A stretch of DNA of 20,000 bases from an uncultured virus (IMG/VR IMGVR_UViG_3300001589_000005) (lineage: Duplodnaviria > Heunggongvirae > Uroviricota > Caudoviricetes), in the IMG/VR virus record IMGVR_UViG_3300001589_000005, positions 51,897-71,896 of that record; one strand, given 5' to 3'. The position numbers and the translations under genes are program-made. This document shows, one piece after another, positions 2-19,918 of this stretch; position 1 is the first letter of the stretch, and each line of letters starts with the position of its first letter. The notes under the pieces were generated by a model. That model saw only the letters and a program-made list of their open reading frames with translations, was not told where the DNA came from and ran no database searches.

Positions 2-469
2 AAAGTGACGTTAACTCCACCTTCTGAAATTACTATTGGATTAGATGTTCGTAGAACTTCTTTTCTAGTAACTGCAACTAACTTGCCTGCGAGTACATTG
101 GGTGAGATTGCAATACCATTCAGAGGTAGAACCATTTATATGGCTGGTGACAGACCTGCTCCAGAAACTTGGACAACTACTTTTTATAATGACACTGACT
201 TTATGATTAGAAACGCAATGGAAAGATGGCAAAACGGTATTAACAATTATGCCGATGCATCTGGATTAATTACCCCTGCTGGTTATCAAACTGATTTAAC
301 AGTTGAACAACTAGACAGAGATGATACAATCCTTAAATCATACATTTTTAGAAATGCGTTTCCACTGACTGTTTCACAGATTGACTTAACAACTGCTGAA
401 GCAACAGAAATTGAAACATTTGAGGTTACATGGCGTTACCAACACTTTGAACCTTCAAATATACTATAG
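2..469 (+). CDS. gp19: Tail tube protein (T4 gp19-like), 5'-truncated by the window edge
   Basis: Motifs LPASTLGEIAIPFRGRTIYMAGDR, WTTTFYNDTDF.IRNAMERW and IETFEVTWRYQ are typical of gp19. It lies directly upstream of the portal and the frame is open from position 2. Confidence 0.93.
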   Translation, partial: KVTLTPPSEITIGLDVRRTSFLVTATNLPASTLGEIAIPFRGRTIYMAGDRPAPETWTTTFYNDTDFMIRNAMERWQNGINNYADASGLITPAGYQTDLTVEQLDRDDTILKSYIFRNAFPLTVSQIDLTTAEATEIETFEVTWRYQHFEPSNIL

Positions 470-479
470 TATTAAACCT

Positions 480-487
480 ACTAAATA
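480..487 (+). promoter_or_regulatory. Late promoter variant (ACTAAATA) upstream of the portal gene
   Basis: CTAAATA variant of the T4 late consensus TATAAATA, intergenic, about 25 nt before the gp20 ATG. GGAG RBS at 502-505. Confidence 0.65.
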
Positions 488-512
488 GTAGTAGGAAATT
501 TGGAGTAATATA

Positions 513-2159
513 ATGGCGGAACTATTTGGATTTAAATTTGAGAAGATAAAAGACTCTGGTGGGGTAGAGAAATTTACCCCACCTAAAACTGATGACGGAA
601 CTATTGAAGTTGCTGGTGGGGGATTTTTCGGACAAGTTTTAGACACAGACGGTAGAGAACGGACTGAACAAGATCTAATTCGTAGATATAGAGACATTGC
701 CCAACAGGCAGAGTGTGATGCTGCGATTGAAGATATTGTTAATGAGTCTATTGTTTCTAACGAAAGAGACCAAGCAATTCAAGTTACACTTGACAATCTT
801 GGATATTCAGACAAAATCAAAAGAAGAATTAGAGAAGAGTTTTCAGAGGTCTTACAACTACTAGACTTTGAAAGCAAAGGACACGACATATTTAGGCGTT
901 GGTATGTTGATGGTAGATTGTTTTATCATAAAGTAATTGATAAAAATAATCCCAGACAAGGTATTGTAGAATTAAGATATATCGATCCTAAAAAAATTAA
1001 AAAAGTAAGAGAAGTTAAAAAAGATAAAGGTAAGGGTGCAGCTTCCTCAATAGAACTCATTAAAGATATAGAAGATTACTATATGTATAATGAAAAAGGA
1101 ATAGGTGTTGCTGGTGGTTCTAATCAAGGTATTAAAGTCGCTGCAGATTCAATCGCTTACTGTCCATCTGGATTAATTGACCAAAACAAAGGTCATGTAC
1201 TTTCATACTTACACAAAGCAATCAAACCAGTTAATCAACTTAGAATGATTGAGGATGCACTTGTTATCTATCGTATATCAAGAGCGCCTGAAAGACGTAT
1301 CTTCTATATTGATGTTGGTAACTTACCGAAGATAAAAGCAGAACAATATCTAAAAGATGTTATGAATCGTTATCGTAACAAACTGGTATACGATGCAAAT
1401 ACTGGTGAGATAAAAGACGATAGAAATCACATGTCAATGTTAGAAGATTTCTGGTTGCCACGAAGAGAAGGTGGTAGAGGAACAGAAATTACTACATTGC
1501 CAGGCGGTTCTAATCTTGGTGAGATTGATGATATAGAATACTTTAAAAAGAAATTATATCAATCATTAAATGTTCCACAAGCTAGATTAAATGCAGAAGA
1601 AGGATTTAGTTTAGGTAGAAGTACAGAGATTACAAGAGATGAACTTAAATTTACTAAGTTTGTTCAGAGAATGAGAAAGAGATTTACACCACTACTAACA
1701 GATCTTCTAAAAACCCAATTACTATTAAAAGGTGTTATTGGATTAGAAGATTGGCCAAAGATGGTAGAACATATTCAATATGATTTTCTACAAGATGGTC
1801 ATTTTGCAGAATTAAAAAAGGCAGAATTGTTAGAGGGTAGATTGAACTCACTACAGACTATTGAACCATATATCGGTACATTTTTCTCAAAAGAATATGT
1901 ATTGAAAAATGTGTTGAATATGACAGATGCCGAAATAGATGATATGCAAAGGCAGATTAAGAAAGAGTCTGGTATGGATGTTGATGATGGTGGAGTTAAT
2001 GTACCAGATGCAACTGATGGAATCACTAGATACCCAAGTGTAGATGGTGGTGCTCTTCCTGCTGATGATGTTGCAAAATTTAGAGGCGAGGTAGAACCAG
2101 AAGGCGGTGATGAGAAACCAAAACCAAAACCAAATGGAGATGAAAATGGCGACAAGTAA
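513..2159 (+). CDS. gp20: Portal vertex protein
   Basis: Conserved gp20 motifs FRRWYVDGR, SYLHKAIKPVNQLRMIEDALVIYRISRAPERRIFYIDVGNLPK, MLEDFWLPRREGGRGTEITTLPGG and EITRDELKF. Confidence 0.98.
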   Translation: MAELFGFKFEKIKDSGGVEKFTPPKTDDGTIEVAGGGFFGQVLDTDGRERTEQDLIRRYRDIAQQAECDAAIEDIVNESIVSNERDQAIQVTLDNLGYSDKIKRRIREEFSEVLQLLDFESKGHDIFRRWYVDGRLFYHKVIDKNNPRQGIVELRYIDPKKIKKVREVKKDKGKGAASSIELIKDIEDYYMYNEKGIGVAGGSNQGIKVAADSIAYCPSGLIDQNKGHVLSYLHKAIKPVNQLRMIEDALVIYRISRAPERRIFYIDVGNLPKIKAEQYLKDVMNRYRNKLVYDANTGEIKDDRNHMSMLEDFWLPRREGGRGTEITTLPGGSNLGEIDDIEYFKKKLYQSLNVPQARLNAEEGFSLGRSTEITRDELKFTKFVQRMRKRFTPLLTDLLKTQLLLKGVIGLEDWPKMVEHIQYDFLQDGHFAELKKAELLEGRLNSLQTIEPYIGTFFSKEYVLKNVLNMTDAEIDDMQRQIKKESGMDVDDGGVNVPDATDGITRYPSVDGGALPADDVAKFRGEVEPEGGDEKPKPKPNGDENGDK

Positions 2160-2328
2160 AGATTTCGTTGATGCAGTTGTGAACAAAAATAACCTTGAGG
2201 CAGAAGATGCTTTTAAGGCTGCGATTCAAACTAAAGTTGGAGATGCTCTTGAAGCAAAAAGAAAAGAAGTAGCAAAAACTTTTGTTAAACATGAAACTCT
2301 TCCAGATGCAGACGAAGCAGAAGAATAA
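2146..2328 (+). CDS. Small prohead core protein (gp67-like position), 60 aa
   Basis: ATG at 2146 with GGAG RBS at 2136-2139, overlapping the gp20 3' end. Sequence MATSKDFVDAVVNKNNLEAEDAFKAAIQTKVGDALEAKRKEVAKTF is helical, and size and position match gp67-like proteins. Confidence 0.7.
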   Translation: MATSKDFVDAVVNKNNLEAEDAFKAAIQTKVGDALEAKRKEVAKTFVKHETLPDADEAEE

Positions 2329-2571
2329 TGGAGTTTGAAGGTTTATATAGTACAGTTCTTGAAAAAGACGAACACAAAAAATCTAAGGAGTACAAGAAAT
2401 TGTCGCCTAGGATGAAAAAAGCTGTGGACGGAATTTTTCAAAGTTATGGACGATAAACCTTCCGATTTCCTAAATACTTTTGAAAAAACAATTAAAAATG
2501 TAGCGAAAAAAAATAGCGTTCCAGAGAAAGATTTAATCAAGTACTTTGAACGAGAGATTTTAGACATATAG
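2328..2571 (+). pseudogene. Small head-region protein (~80 aa) interrupted by a +1 frameshift at about 2430-2439 (sequencing error, pseudogene or recoding)
   Basis: TAATG-coupled start at 2328 gives MEFEGLYSTVLEKDEHKKSKEYKKLSPRMKKAVDGIF with a stop at 2454-2456. The +1 frame continues KVMDDKPSDFLNTFEKTIKNVAKKNSVPEKDLIKYFEREILDI to TAG 2569-2571, which exactly fills the gap to the next RBS. Confidence 0.65.
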
Positions 2572-2580
2572 GAGAATAAA

Positions 2581-3153
2581 ATGGCGTTTAAAATGTTACG
2601 ACACATTGGTAAAATCGTTCAGGCAAATGACAACGCAGCCGCTTTAGTTCTAGGGCCATTAGGGCCAAGTTCTGCTATCAGAATTTCGGAACATGGTGGA
2701 GAGAATGGTTTTGTCAAAATAACACAAGAGGGTACAGCAGTTACAGCAACCAATGGAAGTTATATAGATGGGGGTACTGTAATCACTATGATACCAGAAG
2801 AAAGACCAAAAGCAATTCAAATTACAGCTGCAAGTTCCGCTGACCCAGTGGTACTAACAGTTGCAGATAGAGGCGAAGGAACTGGTATCAATCATCCTTT
2901 TGCTATAGGTGATCAAATATCTGTAGTAGATGCTGATGTTGCTGCATGGAATACACTACTAACAAATGTTAATGTATCTGCAATAGGTTCTACAACAATT
3001 ACACTTGGTGCTGTTGACGGTAGTTCAACTGCAACCTTTACTGGTGATGCAACTGCAAGATCATGTTATAGTATTTCACACATAAATGAAACTGCTGGTT
3101 CTAATAGTAAAATCTATGTAGAAGAAATTGTTCAAGGACAACCAGGCATATAA
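2581..3153 (+). CDS. Hypothetical beta-rich protein, probably virion-associated (190 aa)
   Basis: GGAG RBS and genome-typical codon usage. Rich in Thr/Ala/Gly, with the segment ITAASSADPVVLTV...HPFAIGDQISV resembling beta modules of phage structural proteins. Located inside the head module. Confidence 0.75.
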   Translation: MAFKMLRHIGKIVQANDNAAALVLGPLGPSSAIRISEHGGENGFVKITQEGTAVTATNGSYIDGGTVITMIPEERPKAIQITAASSADPVVLTVADRGEGTGINHPFAIGDQISVVDADVAAWNTLLTNVNVSAIGSTTITLGAVDGSSTATFTGDATARSCYSISHINETAGSNSKIYVEEIVQGQPGI

Positions 3154-3181
3154 TAAAAATAATTATAGAACATTTTATAAT

Positions 3182-3189
3182 TATAAATA
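3182..3189 (+). promoter_or_regulatory. T4-type late promoter TATAAATA
   Basis: Exact consensus, intergenic, upstream of gp21. Confidence 0.85.
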
Positions 3190-3219
3190 AGTATAATAAG
3201 TTTCGGAAAAGGTAAACAA

Positions 3220-3864
3220 ATGCGAACTGTTAAACTAATTACAGAAGATATCCAAGACGTTCAATTCATTGCAGAAGATACTGCTGATGGTAAAAAGAAC
3301 TATAAGATTCGTGGTGTTTTCATGCAGGCGGACATAAAGAACCGAAATGGCCGTGTTTATCCTATGGAAGTATTGACTAATGAAGTAAATAAGTATAGTA
3401 AAAACTTCATACAAAAAAAGAGAGCCTTTGGAGAGTTAGGTCACCCAGAAGGGCCGACTGTAAATCTGGAAAGAGCATCTCACTTGATAACATCATTAGT
3501 GCCCGAAGGTAAAAATTTTATCGGAGAGGCAAAAATAATGGACACACCTATGGGTAAGATTGTAAAAAGTCTTATGGACGAAGGTGCTACATTAGGTGTT
3601 TCATCTAGAGGTATGGGTAGTTTGCAATCCAAAGGTGGTGCAAATTATGTAAACAAAGATTTCATGCTCGCAACTGCGGCTGATATCGTTGCTGATCCAT
3701 CCGCTCCATCTGCTTTCGTAGAAGGTATCATGGAAGGAAAAGAATGGGTATGGGATAATGGAAGTTATCTTGAACCACATTTGGTGGAAATGAAACAAAG
3801 ACTTGAAAGAGGAAAGGCTGCAAATCAAGCATTAGAATTTGCTAAGTTCCTCAAAATGTTGTAA
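3220..3864 (+). CDS. gp21: Prohead core protease
   Basis: Motifs GVFMQADIKNRNGRVYP, GELGHPEGPTVNL, LGVSSRGMGSL and ADIVADPSAPSAFVEGIMEGKEW. Confidence 0.97.
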   Translation: MRTVKLITEDIQDVQFIAEDTADGKKNYKIRGVFMQADIKNRNGRVYPMEVLTNEVNKYSKNFIQKKRAFGELGHPEGPTVNLERASHLITSLVPEGKNFIGEAKIMDTPMGKIVKSLMDEGATLGVSSRGMGSLQSKGGANYVNKDFMLATAADIVADPSAPSAFVEGIMEGKEWVWDNGSYLEPHLVEMKQRLERGKAANQALEFAKFLKML

Positions 3865-3866
3865 TT

Positions 3867-3874
3867 TATAAATA
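3867..3874 (+). promoter_or_regulatory. T4-type late promoter TATAAATA
   Basis: Exact consensus between gp21 and gp22, followed by an AAGGAG RBS. Confidence 0.85.
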
Positions 3875-3914
3875 ATAGTTAATAACCATAGAGTTAAACA
3901 AAGGAGATAATCCC

Positions 3915-5204
3915 ATGGCTGATCAATTAGATAAAACCATTGAGGAATTGGAAGCTGAAGTACTTGGTGAATTAGAAGAAGCCAACGGTGCCGATGCTCC
4001 TATGAAAAACGCTGCAAAAGCAGAAAAACAAGAAGCAGTTCCAAGTGACGGAGTCACTGGTAAAGCAGATGTCGGTGGTGCAAAACCCGAGGCTAAAGTA
4101 GAAAAAGGTGCTAATGAAGATCGTGGAGAAAAAGCGATTGGTAAAAAAGCATCTGCACAAGCAAAAGAAATTTCAGGCGACGCTCAACAAAAAAGTGAGG
4201 GAAAACCAGATGCAATGCCGGTTGCAAAAGGTGATGCAAAAGAAAATAAACCCCTTGCTGCTGGAGATGAGAATGTCCAAGGCGAAGAAGAAATTGTCGA
4301 AATGACCAAAATGGAAATGAAAGACAAAATGATTAACGCAATGGCATCCATGAATAAAGAAAAAATGGAAAAACTCATGGCCATGTACAATAAGATGGAC
4401 GAAATGGACATGGACGAAGCCAAAAAAGAAAAATCAGAAAAAGTCGAGAAAAGAGTAGCAGACATTGATGTTAAAGAACATGTCGATGCACTTATGAACG
4501 ATGAAAATTCTGAATTAACAGACGAATTTAAGAAAAAAGCTGCAACCGTATTTGAAGCTGCAGTTAAATCTAAAGTGAGAGAAGAAGTAGAACGTCTTGA
4601 AGAAGAATACAAGAACGAACTTACTTCTGAAATTAATGAAACCAAAGACGACCTATCGGAAAAAGTTGACAACTACTTAAATTACGTTGTCGAAGAATGG
4701 ATGAAAGAGAATACACTTGCAATTGAACGAGGACTAAAAGGTGAAATTGCTGAGGACTTTATCTCTGGATTGAAACAACTCTTTGAAGATCATTATGTAG
4801 ACGTGCCTGACGAAAAGTACGATGTACTTGAGGCACAATCAGACAAGATTTCTAAACTAGAAGGTAAACTGGACGAAACTATTCAAAAGGTAGTAGAGAC
4901 TAAAGAACAGAATGCCCAACTAGTGAGGGAAAAGGTCATATCAGAAAGTGTTTCTGATTTGGCTGAAACTGAAATTGAAAAGTTTCAATCATTAGTTAGA
5001 GAAGTTGACTTTACTGACGAAGTATCATTTAGAGAAAAAATTGATACTCTAAAAGAAAGTTATTTTCCAAGAACTAAAGTAGAGATGAGAGAAACAATTG
5101 ATGATGTAGAAACTGGCACCGTAAAGGACATTGACACATCTGATGCAATGAATGTCTACATGACTGCAATCGGCAGAAGTGTCAAGAGTGCGAATACGAA
5201 ATAG
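3915..5204 (+). CDS. gp22: Prohead core scaffolding protein
   Basis: Acidic coiled-coil with FKKKAATVFEAAV, VDNYLNYVVEEWMKEN, GLKQLFEDHYVDVPDEKYD and TLKESYF. Lies between gp21 and gp23. Confidence 0.94.
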   Translation: MADQLDKTIEELEAEVLGELEEANGADAPMKNAAKAEKQEAVPSDGVTGKADVGGAKPEAKVEKGANEDRGEKAIGKKASAQAKEISGDAQQKSEGKPDAMPVAKGDAKENKPLAAGDENVQGEEEIVEMTKMEMKDKMINAMASMNKEKMEKLMAMYNKMDEMDMDEAKKEKSEKVEKRVADIDVKEHVDALMNDENSELTDEFKKKAATVFEAAVKSKVREEVERLEEEYKNELTSEINETKDDLSEKVDNYLNYVVEEWMKENTLAIERGLKGEIAEDFISGLKQLFEDHYVDVPDEKYDVLEAQSDKISKLEGKLDETIQKVVETKEQNAQLVREKVISESVSDLAETEIEKFQSLVREVDFTDEVSFREKIDTLKESYFPRTKVEMRETIDDVETGTVKDIDTSDAMNVYMTAIGRSVKSANTK

Positions 5205-5233
5205 TAACGTAAACTGTTAAAAAGGAGAGACAC

Positions 5234-6565
5234 ATGTTTCAAACAGAACATTTACAAGAAAAGTGGCAGCCAGTCCTAGAACATCCAGAATTACCAAAAA
5301 TTTCGGATAGTTACAGACGGGCAGTTACTACAATTATTCTAGAGAACCAAGAGAAAGCTCTTAAAGAAGATAAAGCTTTCATGACAGAAGCCGCTCCAAC
5401 AAACTTTGTTGGTGGTAACGCTTCTCTAGACACATGGGATCCAATTTTGATTTCCCTAGTAAGACGATCAATGCCTAATTTGATTGCATACGACATTTGT
5501 GGTGTGCAACCGATGACAGGCCCAACTGGTTTAATCTTTGCAATGAGAGCAAGATTTGCATCAATGGACGGTGCAGAAGCTCTTGTTGATGAGACAATGC
5601 CAGACTTTTCAAACCAAGACGCTGGTGGTGACGCTGGTGGTGGTGACGTAACAAACACAGCAACTAACCCTGCCGTTCTTAACGACAGTCCTGCTGGAAC
5701 ATACGAAACCGTAACTGGTATGACAACAGCACAAGGTGAAGCACTTGGAGATACTACTTCTAATGCTTTCGCTGAAATGGCATTCTCAATTGAGAAGCAT
5801 ACTGTTACTGCTGTAACACGTGCTCTTAAAGCAGAATACACTATGGAACTTGCTCAAGACTTAAAAGCAATCCACGGTTTAGATGCTGAGACAGAACTTG
5901 CAAACATCCTATCTGCTGAAATCCTTGCTGAGATCAACAGAGAAGTTGTAAGAAACATCTATGTTTCTGCTGTAAAAGGTGCTCAAACTAATACAACTAA
6001 CGCTGGTATCTTTGACTTGGATACTGACTCAAACGGTAGATGGTCAGTTGAGAAGTTTAAAGGTTTGATGTTCGCTCTTGAAAGAGATGCAAACGCAATC
6101 GGTCAACAGACAAGAAGAGGAAAAGGTAACATGATTATCTGTTCCGCTGATGTCGCATCCGCCCTTCAAATGGCTGGTGTTCTAGACTATACTCCTGCTC
6201 TAAATAACAACTTGAACGTAGATGACACATCAACTACTTTCGCTGGTGTTATGAACGGTAGATTTAAAGTCTATGTAGACCCATACTCTGCAAACGTATC
6301 TGACTCACAATACTATGTCGTGGGTTATAAAGGTACATCACCTTATGACGCTGGTATGTTCTATTGCCCATACGTTCCACTACAAATGGTTCGTGCAGTT
6401 GGTGAGAACACATTCCAACCAAAAATTGGTTTCAAAACTAGATACGGTATCGCTGCTAATCCGTTCCACACTGGAACAGTTGCTGCGGCTGCTAACGGTG
6501 CAATCAGTATCAGTTCTGCAACTAATAAGTACTACAGAAAAGTTAAAGTTTCAAACTTAATGTAA
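5234..6565 (+). CDS. gp23: Major capsid protein
   Basis: Motifs LISLVRRSMPNLIAYDICGVQPMTGPTGLIFAMR, RALKAEYTMELAQDLKAIHGLDAETELANILS and YCPYVPLQMVRAVGENTFQPKIGFKTRYG. Confidence 0.99.
   Translation: MFQTEHLQEKWQPVLEHPELPKISDSYRRAVTTIILENQEKALKEDKAFMTEAAPTNFVGGNASLDTWDPILISLVRRSMPNLIAYDICGVQPMTGPTGLIFAMRARFASMDGAEALVDETMPDFSNQDAGGDAGGGDVTNTATNPAVLNDSPAGTYETVTGMTTAQGEALGDTTSNAFAEMAFSIEKHTVTAVTRALKAEYTMELAQDLKAIHGLDAETELANILSAEILAEINREVVRNIYVSAVKGAQTNTTNAGIFDLDTDSNGRWSVEKFKGLMFALERDANAIGQQTRRGKGNMIICSADVASALQMAGVLDYTPALNNNLNVDDTSTTFAGVMNGRFKVYVDPYSANVSDSQYYVVGYKGTSPYDAGMFYCPYVPLQMVRAVGENTFQPKIGFKTRYGIAANPFHTGTVAAAANGAISISSATNKYYRKVKVSNLM
5618..5641 (+). repeat. In-frame 12-bp tandem duplication (GACGCTGGTGGT x2) in the gp23 variable loop
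   Basis: Two perfect copies encoding DAGG-DAGG. Confidence 0.75.
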
Positions 6566-6582
6566 TATTTAAAAAGAATACT

Positions 6583-6610
6583 AAAAGGGGGGTTCGCTCC
6601 CCTTTTTTTT
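6583..6610 (+). terminator. Rho-independent terminator after gp23
   Basis: AAAA-GGGGGG-TTCG-CTCCCC-TTTTTTTT: a GC stem with one G-U pair, a UUCG loop and a U8 tail. Confidence 0.92.
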
Positions 6611-6615
6611 AGCGT

Positions 6616-6623
6616 TATAAATA
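6616..6623 (+). promoter_or_regulatory. T4-type late promoter TATAAATA
   Basis: Exact consensus immediately after the terminator, upstream of gp3 and its AAGGAG RBS. Confidence 0.85.
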
Positions 6624-6648
6624 AAGATATAACTGTAAGGAGTTTGTA

Positions 6649-7230
6649 GTGGTAGATAATAATCCGTTGTCAAGACAACCAACAAATTTGGACTATGCAA
6701 GTCCTACACAATTTGCTTTTAATATATTGCAACTTCCAAAAGTGCAATTTAATACTACAGCGGTATCTATTCCAGACTTGACTTTGGGGGAGGCAGTTAT
6801 ACCTACACCATTTAAAGATATACCAATACCAGGCACAAATATTACATATGGTAATTTAGATATTACTTTTATTGTTGATGAAGAATTAGAAAATTATAGA
6901 GAAATACATGGATGGTTAACTGGAATTGGTTTTCCACAACAAAGAAGTCAATTTTCATTTTTTAGAAATACTACCTCTGTAACACCAAGTGATGCTAGAA
7001 CTATATCGGTTGACCAAGTTGGAAGTGCTGTTGCTGACAGATCAATGTATTCTGATGCAACATTAACTATATTATCAAACAAAAATAATCCAATTGTTGA
7101 AGTACGATTTGAAGATATTTTTCCAGTATCGGTAGGTGCATTATCATTCACTCAAGCAGCAACGGATGTAGAAAATTTAACAGCAGAGGTAAGTTTTAGA
7201 TATAAAATATATACTATTAATAAGATATAA
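6649..7230 (+). CDS. gp3: Tail tube terminator / tail completion protein
   Basis: GTG start with RBS. Motifs PTNLDYASPTQF, FIVDEELENYREIHGWL and SDATLTILSNKNNP...FEDIFPVS. The gp23-gp3-uvsY-uvsW order is typical of marine T4-like phages. Confidence 0.87.
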   Translation: MVDNNPLSRQPTNLDYASPTQFAFNILQLPKVQFNTTAVSIPDLTLGEAVIPTPFKDIPIPGTNITYGNLDITFIVDEELENYREIHGWLTGIGFPQQRSQFSFFRNTTSVTPSDARTISVDQVGSAVADRSMYSDATLTILSNKNNPIVEVRFEDIFPVSVGALSFTQAATDVENLTAEVSFRYKIYTINKI

Positions 7231-12482: not shown

Positions 12483-12492
12483 GAAGAATATT

Positions 12493-12951
12493 ATGAAAAT
12501 TTTGATTATGGGTTTACCCAATAGTGGAAAAACTTGGTTAGCAAATAGATTGGGAAAAGAGTTATCTGTTCCTACTTGGGATGCTGATGTAGTAAGAAAA
12601 ATATACAATGATTGGGATTTTTCTATTCAAGGAAGAGCCGTTCAAGCTGATAGGATGAGAACACTTGCAGAGTTAGATCCAGTAAGTATTAGTGCATTTA
12701 TTTGTCCACTACCAGCATTAAGAAATAACTTTAGACCAGATATATTGATCTGGATGGATACCGTACAAGCATCACCGTATAAAGATACTGATGCTCTGTT
12801 CAAACCACCTATTAAAATAGCAGACATAAGGATAACAAAATGGATAGCCGAAAACCAACTGTACAAATGCTTGGAAGGTTTCAGCCTTGGCACGATGGAC
12901 ACACAGAGCTTTTCAAAAGAGCTCATTCAAAGACTGGCCAAGTTGCAATAA
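12493..12951 (+). CDS. P-loop kinase, adenylylsulfate-kinase-like
   Basis: Walker A GLPNSGKT, DADVVR, DWDFS..GR..QA.RM, SAFICP and IWMDT. The last ~37 codons overlap the next ORF. Confidence 0.8.
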   Translation: MKILIMGLPNSGKTWLANRLGKELSVPTWDADVVRKIYNDWDFSIQGRAVQADRMRTLAELDPVSISAFICPLPALRNNFRPDILIWMDTVQASPYKDTDALFKPPIKIADIRITKWIAENQLYKCLEGFSLGTMDTQSFSKELIQRLAKLQ

Positions 12952-13172
12952 TGGTTCGTGATACTGGTGAAGGGTATCATGACAGCGTGGATGTAAAAAT
13001 TAAACTATCTAATGCTGGTTTCTTATATGATGTTGACTATATTATTATGGATGTTCCTAATATAGTGAATATTACATATGGAAGAGATGTTGGTTATAAG
13101 ATTGAACAAGAACATTTTGATGAAGAAATTGAAAGTATATCTGCAACAGAGATTAGGGGGATACCAGTTTGA
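12840..13172 (+). CDS. HIGH-superfamily (cytidyltransferase-like) nucleotidyltransferase
   Basis: Motifs MLGRFQPWHDGH (HxGH), PNIVNITYGRDVGY and ISATEIR. AAGGA RBS about 7 nt upstream of ATG 12840. Confidence 0.85.
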   Translation: MDSRKPTVQMLGRFQPWHDGHTELFKRAHSKTGQVAIMVRDTGEGYHDSVDVKIKLSNAGFLYDVDYIIMDVPNIVNITYGRDVGYKIEQEHFDEEIESISATEIRGIPV

Positions 13173-14875
13173 TTATATTTAAGAATGTGAAGTGGAAGAA
13201 TTTTTTATCAACTGGCAATACTAGTACAAGTATTGATTTAGACAGAAACCCACAAACACTTATTGTTGGAGATAACGGTGCTGGTAAGTCTACAATACTA
13301 GATGCACTATGTTTTGGTTTGTTTGGTAAACCATTTAGAGTGATTAGTAAAAATCAATTGATTAATTCTATTAATGGTAGTGGTACAGAAGTAGAAGTTA
13401 CATTTCAAATCGGAACAAAAAACTACAAAGTATTTAGAAGTATCAAACCAAATAAGTTTGAAATCTATTGTGATGATGTAATGGTGAATCAAGAAGCGCA
13501 TGCTAGAGATTATCAAAAGATACTAGAACAACAAATTCTAAAACTAAACTATGGTTCTTTCACACAAGTGGTAATACTTGGTAGTGCATCATGGGCTCCG
13601 TTTATGCAACTTAAAGCAATGAAAAGAAGAGAAGTTGTTGAAGAGATATTAGATATAAAAATCTTTTCAATGATGAATATGATTGTAAAAACACACATAA
13701 AGAATATTGTAGATGAAACTAGAGAAGTTTCACATAAGTTTGAGGTTACACAAACAGAATTTGATTTATCTAGTAAGTATATCAATGAAAGTAAAAGTGA
13801 AAAAGCAAAACTAAGAACTGATAAGAAAAGACAGATAGAACAAAATAAAAAAGAAATAGGTAGAAGAGAGAATGAAATTGATGAATTAAAATCTAAAAAA
13901 GAAGAATATCTAGGGCAGATTTTGGATGCAAATAAAGTAGAACAAAAAATACAGAAGATGTTGGGTATTCGTGCTACTCTAGTAGAGAAACATAAAAGTC
14001 ATAGTAAATCAGTTGATTTTTTTAAAGACAATGAAACATGTCCGACATGTGATCAAGAAATCGCTCAAACATTTAAAGATGAAATCCTCTCTACTAAACA
14101 AGGAGAACTTGACGAACTAGAAGATGGTATGAAACAACTCAAACAAGAGATGGAAAATACTCAAAAAAGACAAGAAGAGATAGAAACTAATACTCAAAAT
14201 ATTAGAGAGTTAGATGTGAAAATATCTTCTATAGGGTATTCTAAATCAGAGTTGGAAAAGTTTAATGTTAAACTAGAAACAGAACTAACACAGTTAGATA
14301 GTAACGAAAAGTCAGCAGATGAAACTAACTTAGACGGTTTACAAACTAAATTAGATGAGTTAGATAAACAACAATCATCTTTAAAAGATGAACAACAATA
14401 TAATGAAGCTGCAAAAGCAATGTTACAAGATACTGGAATCAAGACTAAGATTATTAAACAGTATCTTCCTATCATGAATAAACTAATTAATGCTTACTTA
14501 CAATCTATGGAATTTTATGTAAACTTTAATTTAGATGAAAACTTTAATGAAACTATTAAGTCTAGATTCCGTGATGATTTTAATTATGCTTCATTTAGTG
14601 AGGGTGAGAAAATGCGAATAGACCTCGCATTACTATTTACTTGGCGTGCAATTGCAAAAATGAAAAACTCTACGAATACTAATCTATTAATACTTGATGA
14701 AATATTTGATAGTTCACTAGATGGAACTGGAACAGAAGAGTTCTTAAAAATACTGGGAACTTTAGAAAATGAAAACATATTTGTTATATCACATAAGGGT
14801 GACCAATTAACAGACAAATTTAGAAACTCAATAAGATTTGAGAAGATAAGAAACTTTAGTCATGTTGCTGCTTAA
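13169..14875 (+). CDS. gp46: Recombination endonuclease ATPase subunit (Rad50/SbcC-like)
   Basis: Walker A GDNGAGKST, coiled coil with a CPTC Zn hook, signature FSEGEKMRIDLALLF, Walker B LILDEIFDSSLD and VISH. TTG start. Confidence 0.96.
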   Translation: MIIFKNVKWKNFLSTGNTSTSIDLDRNPQTLIVGDNGAGKSTILDALCFGLFGKPFRVISKNQLINSINGSGTEVEVTFQIGTKNYKVFRSIKPNKFEIYCDDVMVNQEAHARDYQKILEQQILKLNYGSFTQVVILGSASWAPFMQLKAMKRREVVEEILDIKIFSMMNMIVKTHIKNIVDETREVSHKFEVTQTEFDLSSKYINESKSEKAKLRTDKKRQIEQNKKEIGRRENEIDELKSKKEEYLGQILDANKVEQKIQKMLGIRATLVEKHKSHSKSVDFFKDNETCPTCDQEIAQTFKDEILSTKQGELDELEDGMKQLKQEMENTQKRQEEIETNTQNIRELDVKISSIGYSKSELEKFNVKLETELTQLDSNEKSADETNLDGLQTKLDELDKQQSSLKDEQQYNEAAKAMLQDTGIKTKIIKQYLPIMNKLINAYLQSMEFYVNFNLDENFNETIKSRFRDDFNYASFSEGEKMRIDLALLFTWRAIAKMKNSTNTNLLILDEIFDSSLDGTGTEEFLKILGTLENENIFVISHKGDQLTDKFRNSIRFEKIRNFSHVAA

Positions 14876-15408
14876 TGGGTAAGAGGAGTGATTTTGAAAG
14901 AGTCGAGAGGGATTTTTATCCTACACCTTGGCAAGCAGTAGAACCTCTTGTTCCACATTTACCAGAGGAGTTTGCATTTGCTGAACCTTGTGCTGGTGAT
15001 GGTGCATTGGTAAATCATATTGAAACTTTGATGGAAGGTGGTTGGTGTTCATGGGCATCAGATATTGAACCACAGAAAAAAAGTATTATTAATAAACACT
15101 TTAGAGATTTGGGTGAACATGAGTTTTTAGAAGCTGATTATATCATTACAAATCCGCCTTGGGATAGAAAACTATTACATCCTATGATTGAATACTTTAC
15201 TGCATTTAGACCTACATGGTTATTGTTTGATGCTGATTGGATACATACTAAACAGAGTGTTCAATATCTACCACTTTTAAAAAAGATAGTAAGTATTGGT
15301 AGAGTGCAATGGATACCAGACAGTAATTCCACAGGCAAAGATAATTGTTGTTGGTATTTGTTTAGTAAGGGTGATTCACAACTAATTCAATTTGTGGGGA
15401 GAAAATAA
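14875..15408 (+). CDS. Compact amino-type (N6-adenine/N4-cytosine) DNA methyltransferase
   Basis: DFYPTP (motif X), EPCAGDG (motif I) and IITNPPW (motif IV). TAATG-coupled to gp46. Confidence 0.8.
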   Translation: MGKRSDFERVERDFYPTPWQAVEPLVPHLPEEFAFAEPCAGDGALVNHIETLMEGGWCSWASDIEPQKKSIINKHFRDLGEHEFLEADYIITNPPWDRKLLHPMIEYFTAFRPTWLLFDADWIHTKQSVQYLPLLKKIVSIGRVQWIPDSNSTGKDNCCWYLFSKGDSQLIQFVGRK

Positions 15409-16271
15409 TGGGGAAAAAAGTTTTAGTCTGTATTGGTGATAGCTGGACAGATGATAATTTTAACAGTTCTGTTTATCCAGATATGGATACTAATTGGCCT
15501 AAATGGCCAAAACATCTTGCTGATATGTTAGATATGGAAGTCTTAAATCTAGGTACATGTGGGTCTGGTAATCAACAGATATTCAATAAAACTGTAGATG
15601 CCACAAATTATGCTGATAATATTGGTGGTGTGGTTTGTATGTGGAGCGAACCAGATAGAATTGATTTTGAAGTTCATGACCCCAAAAAACAGTGGAATGG
15701 ATATAATACTATAACAAACAGCGCTTTTCTTCATTGGAGTCCTAGACGCTCAGTAGGATTAAAAAGACAGACTCATCAACCATTATTGGGGATTGATGAA
15801 ATCTCTACAGCGGTTCGTAGATGGAATCAAAATCACACAATGGTCTCAAATACAAAATTTGATCCTCTTGCAGAGCAAGTATTAGATTTAGGTATATGGC
15901 AAATGGAAACATCGTGGAGACAGAGTCTACGATACTGGTATTCAGTTCAAAGTATTTGCGAAAATGAAAAAATACCATATTTACAGATAGTAGGAACGAA
16001 TCCATTTTTTACTTGGTTAGAGGAACAAGATTATAAGGTAGAAAGAAGAAAAGTAATAGATCATTTAATGACTACAGATTATATGCTTTCTATAAATAAT
16101 GATACATTTGTCGGTTGGCCTATATTTGGAGATATTGGTGGAGATACAGCATCATCAATAATTCACCATGAAAAGTATAGAATGGGAGTAAATGATTCGC
16201 ATCCAAACGAATCAGGCCACAGATATCTGGCAGAATACCTATATAAAGAGTGGAACACCAACTGGGCGTGA
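15408..16271 (+). CDS. SGNH/GDSL hydrolase-like protein
   Basis: Block I CIGDSWT, NLGTCGSGN, and C-terminal DSHPNESGH (DxH). Confidence 0.75.
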   Translation: MGKKVLVCIGDSWTDDNFNSSVYPDMDTNWPKWPKHLADMLDMEVLNLGTCGSGNQQIFNKTVDATNYADNIGGVVCMWSEPDRIDFEVHDPKKQWNGYNTITNSAFLHWSPRRSVGLKRQTHQPLLGIDEISTAVRRWNQNHTMVSNTKFDPLAEQVLDLGIWQMETSWRQSLRYWYSVQSICENEKIPYLQIVGTNPFFTWLEEQDYKVERRKVIDHLMTTDYMLSINNDTFVGWPIFGDIGGDTASSIIHHEKYRMGVNDSHPNESGHRYLAEYLYKEWNTNWA

Positions 16272-16274
16272 TAG

Positions 16275-16300
16275 TAAGCCACTGATTTTACAGCGTTTTT
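16275..16300 (+). repeat. 26-bp motif copy 1 (TAAGCCACTGATTTTACAGCGTTTTT)
   Basis: 21 of 26 positions identical to the reverse complement of 18645-18670. Confidence 0.7.
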
Positions 16301-16326
16301 TAATTCAAAAAAAGTGAAAAAAAGAC

Positions 16327-16355
16327 TTGACTTTGCCTCAAAAGTGTGTCAGCTT
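16327..16355 (+). promoter_or_regulatory. Sigma70-like early promoter for the CobT-like gene
   Basis: AAAAAAAGAC then TTGACT, a 17-bp spacer ending in TGTGT (extended -10 TGn), then a weak -10 CAGCTT. Architecture is shared with the promoter at 18680. Confidence 0.6.
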
Positions 16356-16385
16356 ATATATATGATGATGATTGAGAGGAAAACT

Positions 16386-18641
16386 ATGAAAGATAAATCG
16401 AGACTTGCGAAGTTACTTGCAGAAGAAGATATTCATGTAGTTCATAAAAAAGTAGAAACTGCTGCTTTTGACGTTAAAAATCGTGAATTGGTTTTACCTA
16501 TCTGGAAAGATATGAGTGAAAGTGTTCAAGACTTATTTACACTTCATGAGGTAGGTCATGCATTTTGGACTCCATTAGATATGTTGGAAACCGCTAGAAA
16601 GAAAAATATTGATTTTTCTTTTGTCAATGTCCTAGAAGATGTTAGAATTGAAAAGATGATACAATCTAGATACCCAGGCGGTGTTAGGTGTTTCAATCTA
16701 GGATATACTGAATTATTACAAATGGATTTTTTCAAACTCCAAGGTAAACATCTAAAATCAATGAACTTGATTGATAGAATTAATCTTCATTTTAAACATG
16801 TGTCTGATGTTCCATTTTCTGATGCAGAGATGGAGTGGGTTCAAAAAGCAAATGAAACTAAGACTCCTAAACAAGTATTAAAACTTGCTCAAGAGTTATA
16901 TGAATATATTGAACAAAACGAAGAATCCCAAGGTGATCCAGACCAAGATAATGCTGGTGCTGACGGTAAGATGAGTCAGATGCCTAGTGAGGGTAATGCT
17001 GACGCTGAATCACAAAGTGGACAAAGTTCAGACAGTTCTGGTGGTAAAGAAGAAAACCAAGAAAACGGTGATTCTGATGACCAGAGTGAGGCTGGAGACG
17101 ACCAGAACACCGACCAGACAGAACAAGGTTCAAATGGTAGTGGTGATGGTGATGATGAAAAATCTGATAAAAAAGGTTCTGAACAAGTAGTTACTAATGG
17201 TAAAGAGGGTGGTAAATCAGAAGGTAAAAAATTCGTTGCTTCTACCGATAGTGCTTATCAACAGGCATCTAAAAAGTTTTTAGATACAAATGCTCAAGAT
17301 AGAAATTATTGTTGGATACCAAAGTTAGATAATATCAAAGATATGATTGATACGCCTGCTCAAATCCTAGAGGATTTAAGAGAGTTTTACAAAAACGATC
17401 AAAACGATACTTTCTTTCAATACACTCAACAAGAATTGAAAACTTTTCTAGACGGTTCTAAAAAAACAGTATCTTATATTACTAAAGAATTTGAGATGAA
17501 AAAAGCTGCAGATCAATACAATCGTGCTACTGTCGCAAAAACTGGTTCGTTAGATATGTCTAAGTTACATACTTACAAATACAATGAGGATTTATTTGCT
17601 AAAGTTACTAATGTGCCTGGGGCTACAAACCACGGTTTAGTTTTCTTTTTGGATTGGTCTGGATCAATGCAAGAGAATATGAGTGGTACTATGAAACAGT
17701 TATTTAATCTTACAGAATTTTGTATGAGAACTAAAATTCCTTTTGAGGTTTTCGCTTTCTCTGATAGGGCCTATCGAATTAAAGATAGAAGGTTTGAACA
17801 AGTATTCAAGTCTGGTGATATCAAAGTTGATGAATTAAAATTGTTTAACTTTTTGAGTTCTTCAATGTCCAAAAAAGAACAACATGAAATGATGCATTAC
17901 ATGTATATGATGGGTGAAAATTGGAAGGGTTATAGAAATTGGAGTAGACAAGGTTATCCTTTAGGAGTGATGAATTATTATCAATTAGGTGGTACACCAC
18001 TTAATCATGCTATTATCGCTGCTATGAAAATAGTTCCAGACTTTCAGAAAAAACATAATGTTCAAAAAATACACTCTGTATTTTTAACTGATGGTTATAG
18101 TCATAGAGTTGATTCTGCCTATCATGTTAGTACGGATAAAGAAGGTCAATCTTATAATGATTGTAAATATATTGATGGTTGGAGAAGAGATGATGTTCAT
18201 ATTACCGATCCAATTAGTGGTGCTAAAATCATTACTGATAGAAATGGTAGAAATGGACAAACTGTTTCACTTTTCAAGTTGTTAAAGAAAAGAGTACCTA
18301 ATATGAATATTGTAGGTTTCTTTATTGCTGGTTCTGGAAAAAATGGTAGAGTTCATAAGAATATTATTGAGGACAAGTTTGGATTACACTCATATAGTGA
18401 TTATGCAAAAGTTAGAGAAATCTATAAGACTCTTAGAAAAGATAATGTGGTAGTTTCTACAGAGGATGGATATGATGCATTTTATATCTTGCCTGGGGCT
18501 GGTGCAATGCAAGAATCAGAAGAGTTAGTTGTAAATCCAAACGCTAAAGTTGGTGAATTGAAGAAAGCATTTATGAAATCTTCTACTAACAAAATGGCGA
18601 ATCGCCCAGTATTAAACAAGTTTGTTGGGATGATTGCCTAA
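16386..18641 (+). CDS. CobT-like protein: N-terminal HExxH metallopeptidase-like domain, acidic linker, C-terminal vWA/MIDAS domain
   Basis: LHEVGHA..T and NVLEDVRIE, a D/E/G/S-rich linker, and MIDAS motifs LDWSGSM, GGTPL and FLTDG. ATG 16386 follows a GAGGA RBS. Adjacent to the CobS-like ATPase. Confidence 0.85.
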   Translation: MKDKSRLAKLLAEEDIHVVHKKVETAAFDVKNRELVLPIWKDMSESVQDLFTLHEVGHAFWTPLDMLETARKKNIDFSFVNVLEDVRIEKMIQSRYPGGVRCFNLGYTELLQMDFFKLQGKHLKSMNLIDRINLHFKHVSDVPFSDAEMEWVQKANETKTPKQVLKLAQELYEYIEQNEESQGDPDQDNAGADGKMSQMPSEGNADAESQSGQSSDSSGGKEENQENGDSDDQSEAGDDQNTDQTEQGSNGSGDGDDEKSDKKGSEQVVTNGKEGGKSEGKKFVASTDSAYQQASKKFLDTNAQDRNYCWIPKLDNIKDMIDTPAQILEDLREFYKNDQNDTFFQYTQQELKTFLDGSKKTVSYITKEFEMKKAADQYNRATVAKTGSLDMSKLHTYKYNEDLFAKVTNVPGATNHGLVFFLDWSGSMQENMSGTMKQLFNLTEFCMRTKIPFEVFAFSDRAYRIKDRRFEQVFKSGDIKVDELKLFNFLSSSMSKKEQHEMMHYMYMMGENWKGYRNWSRQGYPLGVMNYYQLGGTPLNHAIIAAMKIVPDFQKKHNVQKIHSVFLTDGYSHRVDSAYHVSTDKEGQSYNDCKYIDGWRRDDVHITDPISGAKIITDRNGRNGQTVSLFKLLKKRVPNMNIVGFFIAGSGKNGRVHKNIIEDKFGLHSYSDYAKVREIYKTLRKDNVVVSTEDGYDAFYILPGAGAMQESEELVVNPNAKVGELKKAFMKSSTNKMANRPVLNKFVGMIA

Positions 18642-18644
18642 TGA

Positions 18645-18670
18645 AAAAACCCTTTAAAATCAAGGACTTA
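18645..18670 (-). repeat. 26-bp motif copy 2, inverted (TAAGTCCTTGATTTTAAAGGGTTTTT on the - strand)
   Basis: Inverted partner of 16275-16300. Confidence 0.7.
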
Positions 18671-18679
18671 AAAAAAGAC

Positions 18680-18708
18680 TTGACAATGGGTTAAAGATGT
18701 GTTACTTT
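18680..18708 (+). promoter_or_regulatory. Sigma70-like early promoter for the cobS-like gene
   Basis: AAAAAAAGAC then TTGACA, a 17-bp spacer ending in TGTGT, then TACTTT. GAGAGG RBS downstream. Confidence 0.8.
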
Positions 18709-18742
18709 AAGGTATGATGAAAATTGAGAGAGGTTATATATT

Positions 18743-19918
18743 ATGTATTTAAGTCCAAGAAAACAGAAGTTTGTAGATTCTGCATCTGAACAATTCGGTG
18801 CTGGTTCTATTCTGAACAAATCGCAAGTCAAAGAGATTTGTGATAAACTAGAACTGCCACTTGCTGGTTGGTTTCTAGGTCAGTGTAAAACTGGTTACAA
18901 TCAATTCAAACTTCCTAATGAAGAAAAGTATGTTACTGAAACAGTACAGACTAATACTGCGCCAGTAGAAAATACTATGGTTAATTTGGTTGCAACAAAT
19001 ATGGAAAAACAAAATTTAGTTCCAGAGGCCTTTGTAGGTTTTGTACCTTGGGGTCATCACTCTACAATTAAACAGATTGTAAAATCTGGTATGTTCTATC
19101 CAGTTTTTGTTACTGGATTGTCTGGTAACGGTAAAACTCTTATGATTGAACAGATTCATGCTGAACTTAAAAAAGAGTTAATCAGAGTTAACATCACAAT
19201 CGAAACTGATGAAGATGATTTACTTGGTGGTTTCAGATTGGTAAATGGTGAAACTAAGTTTGTGCCTGGGCCTGTTATTGAGGCTATGGAAAAAGGTTGT
19301 ACTCTTTTACTTGATGAGTGTGACTTAGGTTCTAACAAGTTACTTGCCCTTCAGCCTGTTCTTGAGGGTAAAGGTGTTTACTTGAAAAAAGTAAACAAGT
19401 GGATTACTCCTAAAAATGGTTTCAATGTGATGGCAACTGCTAACACAAAAGGTAAAGGTTCAGATGACGGTAGGTTTATCGGAACTAACATTTTGAACGA
19501 GGCCTTCTTAGAAAGGTTTGCAATCACTATCGAACAACCATATGCTACTACTAAGACCGAAAAGAAGATCGTTATCGGTTCTATGAAAAAGTATGGAACT
19601 GTAGATGAAGTGTTTGCAGATAATCTTGTCAAGTGGGCAGAGGTTATCAGAAAGACTTTCTTTGACGGTGGAGTCGATGAAGTGATTTCGACCAGAAGGT
19701 TAGATCACATCGTTAAGGCATTCGCCATCTTCAATGACAAGATGAAGTCTATTGAACTTTGTGTTGCTAGGTTTGATGATGAAACCAAAGACTCCTTTAT
19801 GGATCTTTACACTAAAATAGATAGTGGAATCGATGTTGGTTCTACTACAGATAATTCAGACGTTGATGCAGAACTTGCTGAGATGGATAAAGAGGATGAT
19901 GACGAACCATCATTCTAG
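18743..19918 (+). CDS. cobS: CobS/MoxR-family AAA+ ATPase
   Basis: Walker A GLSGNGKT, RVNITIETDEDDLLGGFRL, Walker B LLLDE, ATANTKGKGSDDGRFIGTNILNEAFLERF and ISTRRL, as in the CobS-like proteins of marine T4-like phages. Confidence 0.92.
   Translation: MYLSPRKQKFVDSASEQFGAGSILNKSQVKEICDKLELPLAGWFLGQCKTGYNQFKLPNEEKYVTETVQTNTAPVENTMVNLVATNMEKQNLVPEAFVGFVPWGHHSTIKQIVKSGMFYPVFVTGLSGNGKTLMIEQIHAELKKELIRVNITIETDEDDLLGGFRLVNGETKFVPGPVIEAMEKGCTLLLDECDLGSNKLLALQPVLEGKGVYLKKVNKWITPKNGFNVMATANTKGKGSDDGRFIGTNILNEAFLERFAITIEQPYATTKTEKKIVIGSMKKYGTVDEVFADNLVKWAEVIRKTFFDGGVDEVISTRRLDHIVKAFAIFNDKMKSIELCVARFDDETKDSFMDLYTKIDSGIDVGSTTDNSDVDAELAEMDKEDDDEPSF

Follow-up and report, generated by a model that had tools for sequence, protein, structure and literature searches.

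Short words retained only beside a GpC step suggest a base modification in a T4-like ocean phage

Introduction

The subject of this report is a 20,000-nucleotide stretch of DNA (hereafter, the window) from an uncultured virus of the class Caudoviricetes (IMG/VR record IMGVR_UViG_3300001589_000005), in which the word CAGG, and CCTG as its complement, is found only where a GC dinucleotide overlaps it. An earlier reading, made from the letters of the window alone (the sequence-only reading), had taken this as selection against a host-defence target, possibly combined with an undescribed counter-defence. The best-known phenomenon of this kind is restriction-site avoidance. The window resembles it in that words are under-represented on both strands against codon-preserving nulls, and in that zero-count words form mosaics among lineages. 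It differs in being conditional, as a word is purged or kept depending on GpC overlap at its end. To our knowledge, there is no enzyme that matches the 4-bp non-palindromic CAGG/CCTG, and a search for literature on CAGG restriction avoidance in bacteriophages found nothing relevant by title or abstract.

Phage TET-associated C5-methyltransferases are described as acting mainly at GpC[C/T]; some of them skip GpCA, and one subclade accepts any GpC (Burke et al. 2021, PMC8256090). Glycosyltransferases then decorate the GpC sites according to a follow-up, which judges broad protection from restriction unlikely, doubts a role in restriction evasion without excluding it and leaves the function open (bioRxiv 10.1101/2023.12.21.572611). 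The present system is like this hypermodification by C5-methyltransferase, TET (5mYOX) and glycosyltransferase in two respects. The context rule proposed below, a GCY on either strand, with GpCA protective only if the opposite strand has GCY, would equal the specificity given in the relevant part of PMC8256090, and the main relative of the window, contig G001, encodes both a TET-associated glycosyltransferase and a protein like the T4 beta-glucosyltransferase. It is unlike it in that the complete G001 was found without a C5-methyltransferase or TET/JBP domain.

In marine viral metagenome-assembled genomes (MAGs), RGCY is reported as the commonest methylated motif (Hiraoka et al. 2022, PMC8919816), and the Myoviridae-like ones share the N4-methylcytosine (m4C) motifs RGCY, CCWGG and GGWCC. 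The portion of that paper drawn on here matches no methyltransferase to RGCY and regards self-defence as a minor role. The likeness lies in marine myoviruses with a GpC-centred motif, and in phage amino-methyltransferases, which are common there and of which one lies in the window. However, the protective set is wider here, since RGCA and YGCY steps protect too, and the predicted fold of the window enzyme is nearest to N6-adenine methyltransferases. A virus-encoded, dinucleotide-level mark that is thought protective is also made by M.CviPI, a cytosine-5 methyltransferase that acts on GpC and comes from a chlorella virus (cited in PMC8256090). It would modify every GpC, whereas here YGCR steps behave as unmodified and no C5-methyltransferase gene was found. 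Phage CAjan, in turn, is reported to carry the 7-deazaguanine dPreQ0 at GA and GGC (PMC7544227). This partial, motif-specific base replacement protects from restriction, and GGC is a subset of RGC; unlike CAjan, the present phages show no DpdA/TGT and only a partial QueC-like match.

Thus, GpC-directed phage DNA modification is already in print, in the parts of PMC8256090 and PMC8919816 that concern it, and the counter-defence is not as undescribed as had been supposed. What appears to be new is the imprint of a GpC modification on the genome. The joint use of the two known anti-restriction strategies was not found in print, and the supplements of the cited papers may hold relevant motif tables.

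Sequences and Null Models

The window comprises bases 51,897-71,896 of a viral contig of 71,896 nucleotides, G000, which has 34.5% G+C and contains 9 N characters, 0 of them inside the window. G001 is an IMG/VR contig of 148,443 nucleotides, with a methyltransferase identical to that of the window and a UvsW that is 93% identical. The ends of G001 (L107-L114) abut on G000:C1:22443-22471, within a gene for a VrlC-like protein of 2125 amino acids; it is therefore effectively complete and circularly permuted, despite being listed as linear and 84% complete. Pelagibacter phage Mosig served as the negative comparison genome. For the window, 1000 shuffles were made that preserve protein, codon usage and dinucleotides. 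For contig G000, a synonymous-codon permutation and a dinucleotide-preserving shuffle were used, 500 of each, and the expectations for the CAGG contexts and the rescued words in G001 come from codon-preserving shuffles.

CAGG/CCTG Survives Only at GC-Bounded Sites

An automated recount reproduced every position listed earlier by manual scan. All 14 plus-strand CAGG are followed by C, and each of the 16 CCTG has a G before it, a C after it, or both:

705, 1501, 2620, 3143, 3325, 4174, 5517, 6830, 8860, 9163, 15332, 16213, 16675, 17262; plus strand; CAGG (14 sites), all CAGGC, from the automated recount with flanks
86, 155, 275, 1287, 2058, 4806, 5669, 5690, 6194, 8072, 17355, 17616, 18492, 19265, 19271, 19355; minus strand; CCTG (16 sites), i.e., CAGG on that strand, each GCCTG and/or CCTGC, from the recount

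On both strands of the window, HCAGGD is found 0 times against a mean of 36.5 in the shuffles (standard deviation 3.9, minimum 25), and CAGGC 24 times against a mean of 4.9 (maximum 12). The related words are plentiful, as had been remarked, with 73 CTGG and 48 CCAG. On the whole contig, 102 of the 109 CAGG on the two strands read GCAGG or CAGGC, and HCAGGD occurs 7 times, where 191.5 are expected by synonymous-codon permutation and 147.5 by the dinucleotide-preserving shuffle. The avoidance thus stands on the larger sequence, and a depletion of HCAGGD far beyond chance is confirmed. Its absence, as first claimed, is exact in the window but not genome-wide, with 7 copies in the contig and 12 in G001. 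In an unbiased screen of all tetramers with at least 20 occurrences, CAGG/CCTG ranks first for abnormality of its flank distribution, so the word was not cherry-picked. Among the pentamers, the strongest depletion is that of CAGGT/ACCTG and the strongest enrichment that of CAGGC/GCCTG. The flank tables are alike on the plus and minus strands, although 70/77 called genes lie on the plus strand; the cause therefore acts on the DNA duplex and not on mRNA. With the codon-preserving shuffles, this duplex-level effect bears out the strong selection against CAGG/CCTG that had been proposed.

The few copies of HCAGGD reveal an exact rule. Of the 19 in G000 and G001 together, 17 read GCCAGG or GCCCAGG, and the other 2 (one per genome) read CAGGGC. 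In G001, all 11 of 11 CCAGGD are GCCAGG or GCCCAGG, and the lone TCAGGG reads CAGGGC. Each maximal C+AGG+ block is bounded by a G at its left (5') or a C at its right (3'), with 0 exceptions among 109 blocks in G000 and 0 among 265 in G001; five control block types are 59-83% unbounded. Within G001, [AT]CAGG[AGT] was counted once against about 270 expected, or 213-315 in the codon-preserving nulls, and unprotected CAGG 12 times against 282. The G-flanked forms GCAGGA (42 against 34-51) and GCAGGG (11 against 9-13) are both at expectation, and NCAGGC is enriched (187 against 65-88). The count of GC-W-CAGG-D is 0. As CCAGGD is found only as GCCAGG or GCCCAGG, a G at position -2 counts only if position -1 is C; that is, GpC acts as a unit.

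Other Words Follow the Same Rule

CAGG had been regarded as a special, single target, and this did not hold. It is one of many rescued words, and at least 10 other, unrelated words follow the same rule. That depleted words are rescued by an overlapping GC, a check proposed with the sequence-only reading, was borne out by a systematic screen and by the codon-preserving shuffles. The screen returned CAGG, CCGG, CCCG, CTCAG, CACGT, CCGCA, CCGAG, CTGAAG, CCATGG, CTGCAG, CCAGTC and CCTAGG in G001, with CTGGAG in addition in G000, and only one word in Mosig. Several of these are well-known enzyme sites, CTGCAG being that of PstI, CCATGG of NcoI, CCTAGG of AvrII, CTGAAG of Eco57I/AcuI, CTGGAG of BpmI/GsuI and CCGG of MspI/HpaII.

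Every CCGG is overlapped by GC in G001 (15/15) and G000 (7/7), as against 26/53 in Mosig, and the same is true of CTGCAG (18/18 and 12/12). The unprotected forms in G001, given as observed/expected, amount to 0/41 for CCGG, 4/46.6 for CCCG/CGGG, 9/79 for CTCAG, 2/48 for CTGAAG, 0/34.2 for CTGCAG, 4/34 for CCATGG, 5/55 for CACGT, 1/27 for CCGCA, 2/19 for CCGAG and 2/32 for CCAGTC. Those of CCGG, CTGCAG, CTGAAG and CCGCA all lie far under the lowest shuffle, and the GC-overlapped forms of the rescued words reach 0.5-2.3 times the expected counts. In the shuffles, no shift was seen for CTGG, CAAG, CATG, CATATG and CAATTG, which served as controls and whose GC-overlapped and other forms have equal shares. 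When words with CAGG are excluded, the fraction of surviving copies of depleted words that a GC overlaps amounts to 0.57 against 0.20 in G001 (p 2e-26), 0.59 against 0.20 in G000, and 0.32 against 0.23 in Mosig. So many unrelated words cannot be explained by the flank preference of one nuclease, while a GpC mark can account for them.

In the window itself, the rescued words, with no strand assigned except where given, are as follows. The recount confirmed that the single CCGG stands in a GCCGG context, as had been stated.

4218..4221, CCGG, the only one of the window, in a GCCGG context (recount)
1141, 4558, 17506 (range 1141..17511), CTGCAG, three sites, all with G before (window listing with flanks, as for the lines that follow)
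159, CTCCAG, GC-overlapped
396, 3955, CTGAAG, GC-overlapped
3913, CCATGG, GC-overlapped
4261, 17092, CTGGAG, GC-overlapped
4750, 5886, 5928, 19878, CTGAG, GC-overlapped
9160, 19349, CTTCAG, GC-overlapped
15749, CTCAG, GC-overlapped
4086..4089, plus strand, CCCG (aaCCCGag) that no GC overlaps, a rare exception to the rule for rescued words

Other words are depleted in G000 and G001 genome-wide. Asymmetric ones that allow no GC overlap are entirely absent, namely GGGAC/GTCCC (0 against 60) and GGAACC/GGTTCC (0 against 44), and GAAGAC (11 against 73) and GGWCC (4 against 173) are low. CTAG behaves in the opposite way to rescue in the shuffles of G001: GCTAG/CTAGC is depleted (72 against 185), and the remaining forms are not (682 against 588).

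Which GpC Steps Protect

The context rule was derived from word counts before any comparison with published specificities. The idea that every GpC protects had to be given up, as YGCR steps do not. Among words preceded by G, a purine at position -2 is needed only where the second letter of the word is a purine. GCAGG has R at -2 in 60/66 cases (91%), against a background of 47% and 50% in Mosig, and GCACGT in 9/9; the CC.. and CT.. words have no such requirement. From this pattern it follows that a GpC step is unprotective only as YGCR. Palindromes whose GpC steps are all YGCR are absent from G001 (GTGCAC 0/50 and TGCGCA 0/26, observed/expected), and the inner TGCA of CTGCAG gives no protection. 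GCATGC is reduced to 8/46, its survivors having R before or Y after (RGC/GCY) in 6/6 cases. These counts, together with an approximately 2-fold depletion of AGCT, led to the rejection of blanket GpC protection.

In double-stranded DNA, a GpC step that is not YGCR necessarily reads GCY on one strand or both, and the statement with RGC in place of GCY is equivalent. The GCY context was drawn mainly from CAGG, CACGT, GTGCAC, TGCGCA, CTGCAG and GCATGC. The GCY/RGC rule fits the word statistics and is a supported inference, not a settled motif.

Distribution Among Relatives

The closest named phages to G000 are the Pelagibacter phages Mosig and HTVC008M and the Methylophilales phage Melnitz, with about 80% nucleotide identity that is limited to a few core genes. 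The sequence of G000 is frequent in the sea: at least 83% of its sampled 31-mers were present in 20 public runs from 12 studies, in all cases as contigs. Mosig lacks the trait, with 539 HCAGGD against 440 expected. A survey of 91 IMG/VR loci with at least 8 blocks classed 16 as positive (at most 12% of blocks unprotected), 63 as negative (at least 45%) and 12 as intermediate. In positive lineages whose methyltransferase is only 58-84% identical to that of the window, 99/102 blocks are protected. Judged from these loci, the trait is lineage-specific and recurs in separate marine myovirus lineages.

In some otherwise clean loci, the unprotected sites are clustered in one short segment (L008:239-2159, L011:638-1206, L010:13-129), and the segment of L008 roughly coincides with UvsW. 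Such a segment is either a stretch recombined from a trait-less phage or a chimeric assembly; its presence in near-identical relatives indicates mosaicism. The avoided words also form a mosaic. GATC is at 0 in three lineages, GTAC in one and ACGT in two; GGWCC is at about 0 in nearly all, and GAATTC is also among the zero-count words. WCAGGW avoidance behaves as one further module of this lineage mosaic, a pattern expected of restriction pressure from differing hosts. One lineage (L056, L059, L061) is CAGG-negative, yet has a GC-rescue index of 0.40 against 0.18 (p 4.5e-6) for its own avoided words, with GATC at 0 against 405 and AGCT at 14 against 54. Rescue and CAGG pressure are thus separable.

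Candidate Modifier Genes

The window carries one gene that is a candidate for installing a mark:

14875..15408, plus strand, DNA amino-methyltransferase of the N4C/N6A class, 177 amino acids, candidate modifier (phrog_799, E 8e-31; motifs DFYPTP, EPCAGDG, TNPPW)

Its DFYPTP, EPCAGDG, TNPPW and GKDNCCWY motifs are invariant in 24 homologs, and it has no Pfam match. PF01555 and PF02086 gave no match in G000 or G001, and by these profiles, no other DNA methyltransferase can be recognised in the lineage. The cytosine-5 methyltransferase that the sequence-only reading would have had searched for did not turn up: there is no PF00145 in G000, in the effectively complete G001 or in G002-G006, and PF12851 (TET/JBP) is likewise absent from G002-G006 at E<=1. 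Several generic 2OG-Fe(II) (2-oxoglutarate- and iron-dependent) oxygenases are present. As the determinant of the trait, the window methyltransferase was rejected. On a tree of 76 homolog rows, the 12 positive rows need at least 5 changes, and L041+44, L027+37, L047, L081 and L053 carry homologs without GC rescue.

Beside the DNA polymerase, G001 has a cluster (L111:5615-11066) that encodes a DruA-like protein, a protein of 403 amino acids, a T4 beta-glucosyltransferase-like protein, a TET-associated glycosyltransferase, endonuclease VII and a Mom-family protein, with no TET or C5-methyltransferase within it. In the 403-amino-acid protein, a 'DGNHT' stretch looks ParB-like by eye and is supported by no tool. 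The TET-associated glycosyltransferase matches PF20691 with 56.4 bits (cut-off 27.5) at L111:6858-7625 of G001, outside the genome part covered by G000 and the window. The T4 beta-glucosyltransferase-like protein (P0001) reached 0.96-0.99 in Atlas; it and P0002, both neighbours of the TET-associated glycosyltransferase, had no significant match among PDB sequences.

Neither the TET-associated glycosyltransferase nor the Mom-like gene follows the trait. Among 23 loci with the TET-associated glycosyltransferase, 13 have at most 6% of blocks unprotected (12 with at least 86% identity, plus L216 with a partial match of 33 residues), and the 10 with at most 82% identity have 40-69%. The Mom-family gene of G001 (PF25680, 8e-51) was followed through 80 loci, of which 9 are positive (all with at least 96% identity), 11 intermediate and 60 negative. 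A Mom-type adenine modification was rejected as well, as CCGG has no adenine, CAGGT is avoided, and homologs with at most 82% identity occur in trait-less phages. The context of Mu Mom is SASNY, which CAGGT fits.

An unbiased gene association over 7 independent positive and 122 negative loci returned no positive-specific gene in the flanks examined. Subtraction against Mosig was uninformative, since 78/148 proteins of G001 with at least 100 amino acids have no match there. Pre-replicative hydroxymethylcytosine was set aside for want of PF00303 (ThyA-like hydroxymethylase), and 7-deazaguanine by TGT/DpdA because PF01702 had no match at E<=0.01 in G000 or G001. A TctA-family transporter gene (PF01970, 2e-79) at G000:C1:39946-42085 (L003:1946-4085) adjoins a QueC-like PP-loop protein; a search of cellular genomes with the TctA gene found no relative. 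G001 also carries at least 7 radical-SAM proteins and many 2OG-Fe(II) oxygenases. Judged from gene content, the writer may be the window methyltransferase with a clade-specific specificity, a new pathway around the glycosyltransferases that includes a hydroxymethylating step, or a host enzyme.

Proposed Mechanism and Alternatives

The sequences directly give the word statistics, their distribution over lineages, the rule on contexts and the gene content. The explanation that probably fits them, to which a probability of about 0.7 is given, is that a GpC-centred base modification shields the restriction targets that it overlaps and that selection has removed the rest. The GC effect would then be a chemical modification and the pressure that of restriction nucleases. 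The modified base would be the cytosine in GCY or, equivalently, the guanine of RGC on the other strand, and YGCR would stay unmodified. Hosts would attack several short words, among them CAGG/CCTG, CCGG, CCCG, CTGCAG, CTGAAG, CTCAG, CCATGG, CACGT and CCGCA. A copy would remain uncut and selectively neutral if the C:G pair at its end is part of a modified GpC or immediately adjoins one, and all other copies would be a liability and be removed. Removal would be mostly synonymous, e.g., from xCA-GGT to xCT-GGT or xCA-GGC, and partly by amino-acid change, seen as a loss of Pro-Gly.

Several observations weigh against this explanation. GCAGGT/ACCTGC is 4-5-fold depleted in G001 (13 against 52-72) despite its G flank. 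This word, the BspMI/BfuAI site, may be a separate avoided word; an example of the ACCTGC context in the window is found at position 155 (agaCCTGctc). GCCCAGG, at 3 sites without C at the right, would need protection from 2 bp off, and GC-W-CAGG is not tolerated. AGCT is the word depleted about 2-fold though it contains RGC, as in TAGCTA (8/36, observed/expected) and AAGCTT (34/68). An RGC cytosine at most 1 bp from the word was rejected as an exact rule, as it leaves 16/374 CAGG sites unexplained (9/265 in G001 and 7/109 in G000), where the plain run-boundary rule leaves 0. Outside CAGG and CACGT, the test for a purine at -2 is sparse; over the words other than CAGG, it gave 10/17 against 0.49 expected, which is not significant, and 7/17 of its cases are CAGATC sites, where the effect is in truth that of GATC. 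The predicted fold of the window methyltransferase (pLDDT 86.6) is nearest to M.TaqI, HsdM, M.BseCI and CamA, all of them N6-adenine enzymes, with TM scores of 0.55-0.60. PF00145, PF12851 and PF00303 had no match at E<=1, nor PF01702 at E<=0.01, in G000 and G001. Homologs of the methyltransferase, of the Mom-like gene and of the glycosyltransferase all occur in trait-less phages.

Of the two options first offered, tolerance of a word where a GpC modification overlaps it fits much better, and the degenerate target HCAGGD fits poorly. In the latter case, one host nuclease would recognise HCAGGD and the phage DNA would be unmodified. HCAGGD is indeed at 0 in the window and at 7 against 148-192 on the contig, and the searches for PF00145 and PF12851 revealed no GpC-modifying gene. 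However, the 7 and 12 copies of HCAGGD always have a GC one step outward, and the nuclease would have to read position -2 only when -1 is C. One enzyme cannot also recognise CCGG, CCCG, CTGCAG, CTGAAG, CTCAG, CCATGG, CACGT and CCGCA, and the purine dependence at -2 of GCAGG would stay unexplained. This alternative is close to refuted. A still slimmer chance is left to a mutation or repair bias of the very-short-patch type, which would drive words to GC-flanked forms without nuclease selection. The enrichment of CCAG/CTGG with a depletion of CAGG/CCTG, as seen here, is reminiscent of the word skews that very-short-patch repair produces. Counts of 0 where 30-280 are expected are unlike a bias, though, and more than 10 unrelated words are affected, with the effect reaching the amino-acid sequence. 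Moreover, there are sharp differences between close relatives, and otherwise clean genomes include mosaic segments of normal CAGG content, so that such a bias is very unlikely.

The mark might also be installed by the host, an orphan methyltransferase common in the host clade writing GpC methylation and the phages, always released with the mark, losing only the unshielded targets of strain-variable restriction systems. The phage carries an amino-methyltransferase and DNA-glycosyltransferase-like genes of its own, the TctA-based search found no cellular relative, and viral-MAG motifs are described as 'rarely shared' with prokaryotic MAGs, with no matching host pattern in the part of the report consulted (PMC8919816). 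On the other hand, the tree of the phage methyltransferase shows the trait as polyphyletic (at least 5 changes for 12 positive rows), no tested phage gene tracks it, and the complete genome G001 has no known GpC modifier gene. A host origin therefore keeps some standing, but is rather unlikely. It is more doubtful still that guanine is the modified base, as 7-deazaguanine or similar at R-G-C, for which CAjan, with dPreQ0 at GA and GGC, would be the parallel. No TGT/DpdA domain was found in G000 or the effectively complete G001, and no FolE or QueD in Pfam and PHROG scans that covered part of the G001 open reading frames. The word statistics would fit equally well, as the guanine in RGC pairs with the cytosine in GCY. 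A QueC-like PP-loop protein, with a partial match to PF06508 (2e-11), is encoded on the contig, weak QueE-like matches were obtained for radical-SAM proteins of G001, and the GGC motif of CAjan is published (PMC7544227, in its portion on that phage).

If a GpC-centred modification is indeed at work, the signature argues for a protective role of GpC marks, which earlier authors doubted. Partial modification and site avoidance would work together as a single strategy, with enough force to cost the phage about 45% of its Pro-Gly dipeptides. Both the modification motif and the restriction repertoire of the hosts, including a CAGG-cutting activity, would be readable from metagenomic sequence alone. 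The finding points to a further modifier and to a host activity against CAGG, in a virus-host pair that is abundant in the sea. A more specific proposal is tentative and rather doubtful as a whole: a widespread T4-like ocean phage might mark GpC by a pathway without the known writers (C5-methyltransferase, TET, DpdA, hydroxymethylase), maybe based on a glycosyltransferase or on the methyltransferase of 177 amino acids, and this shield might have reshaped both genome and proteome.

Effects on Codons and Proteins

In the 21 open reading frames of the window, glycine is mostly encoded by GGT (234) and GGA (106), with 29 GGC and 27 GGG, in agreement with the earlier remark. After a codon ending in CA, glycine is GGC in 10/10 cases, and elsewhere in 19/386. 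Each CCN-GGN pair contains CAGG, CCTG or CCGG, so every Pro-Gly pair needs a GC flank. The eight such pairs in the window, counted as before, consist of 5 CCA-GGC and 3 gCCT-GGG:

1500, 3142, 6829, 8859, 16674, 17616, 18492, 19265 (starts of the Pro codons; range 1500..19270), plus strand, Pro-Gly codon pairs (8), from the codon count

In G001, 61 Pro-Gly dipeptides were counted where 106 are expected (0.57), and Mosig has 110 for an expected 100 (1.10). The reverse dipeptide, Gly-Pro, is low in the two genomes alike.

A further proposed effect concerns the Walker A motif of a kinase, which reads GLPNSGKT where GLPGSGKT had been called usual:

12511..12534, plus strand, Walker A GLPNSGKT, in the kinase open reading frame 12493-12951 (phrog_10255)

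The reading of this P-loop was upheld, and its link to avoidance is only anecdotal, at 8 orthologous loci. Those that are positive or ambiguous have GLPNSGKT (4), GLPQNGKT (2) or GLSGNGKT (1), and the sole negative ortholog has GLPGSGKT.

The other genes of the window are T4-type, with portal, prohead protease, scaffold, major capsid, tail tube, UvsY, UvsW and a late sigma factor. They are accompanied by gp47/gp46-like nuclease subunits, a CobS/CobT-like pair and small accessory genes, and almost all lie on the plus strand. The kinase reading frame 12493-12951 overlaps that at 12840-13172 in a different frame, and the two match the N-terminal (2-102) and C-terminal (125-225) halves of phrog_10255, the second of which is cytidylyltransferase-like. 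The gene may be split or frameshifted, or the assembly may be in error here.

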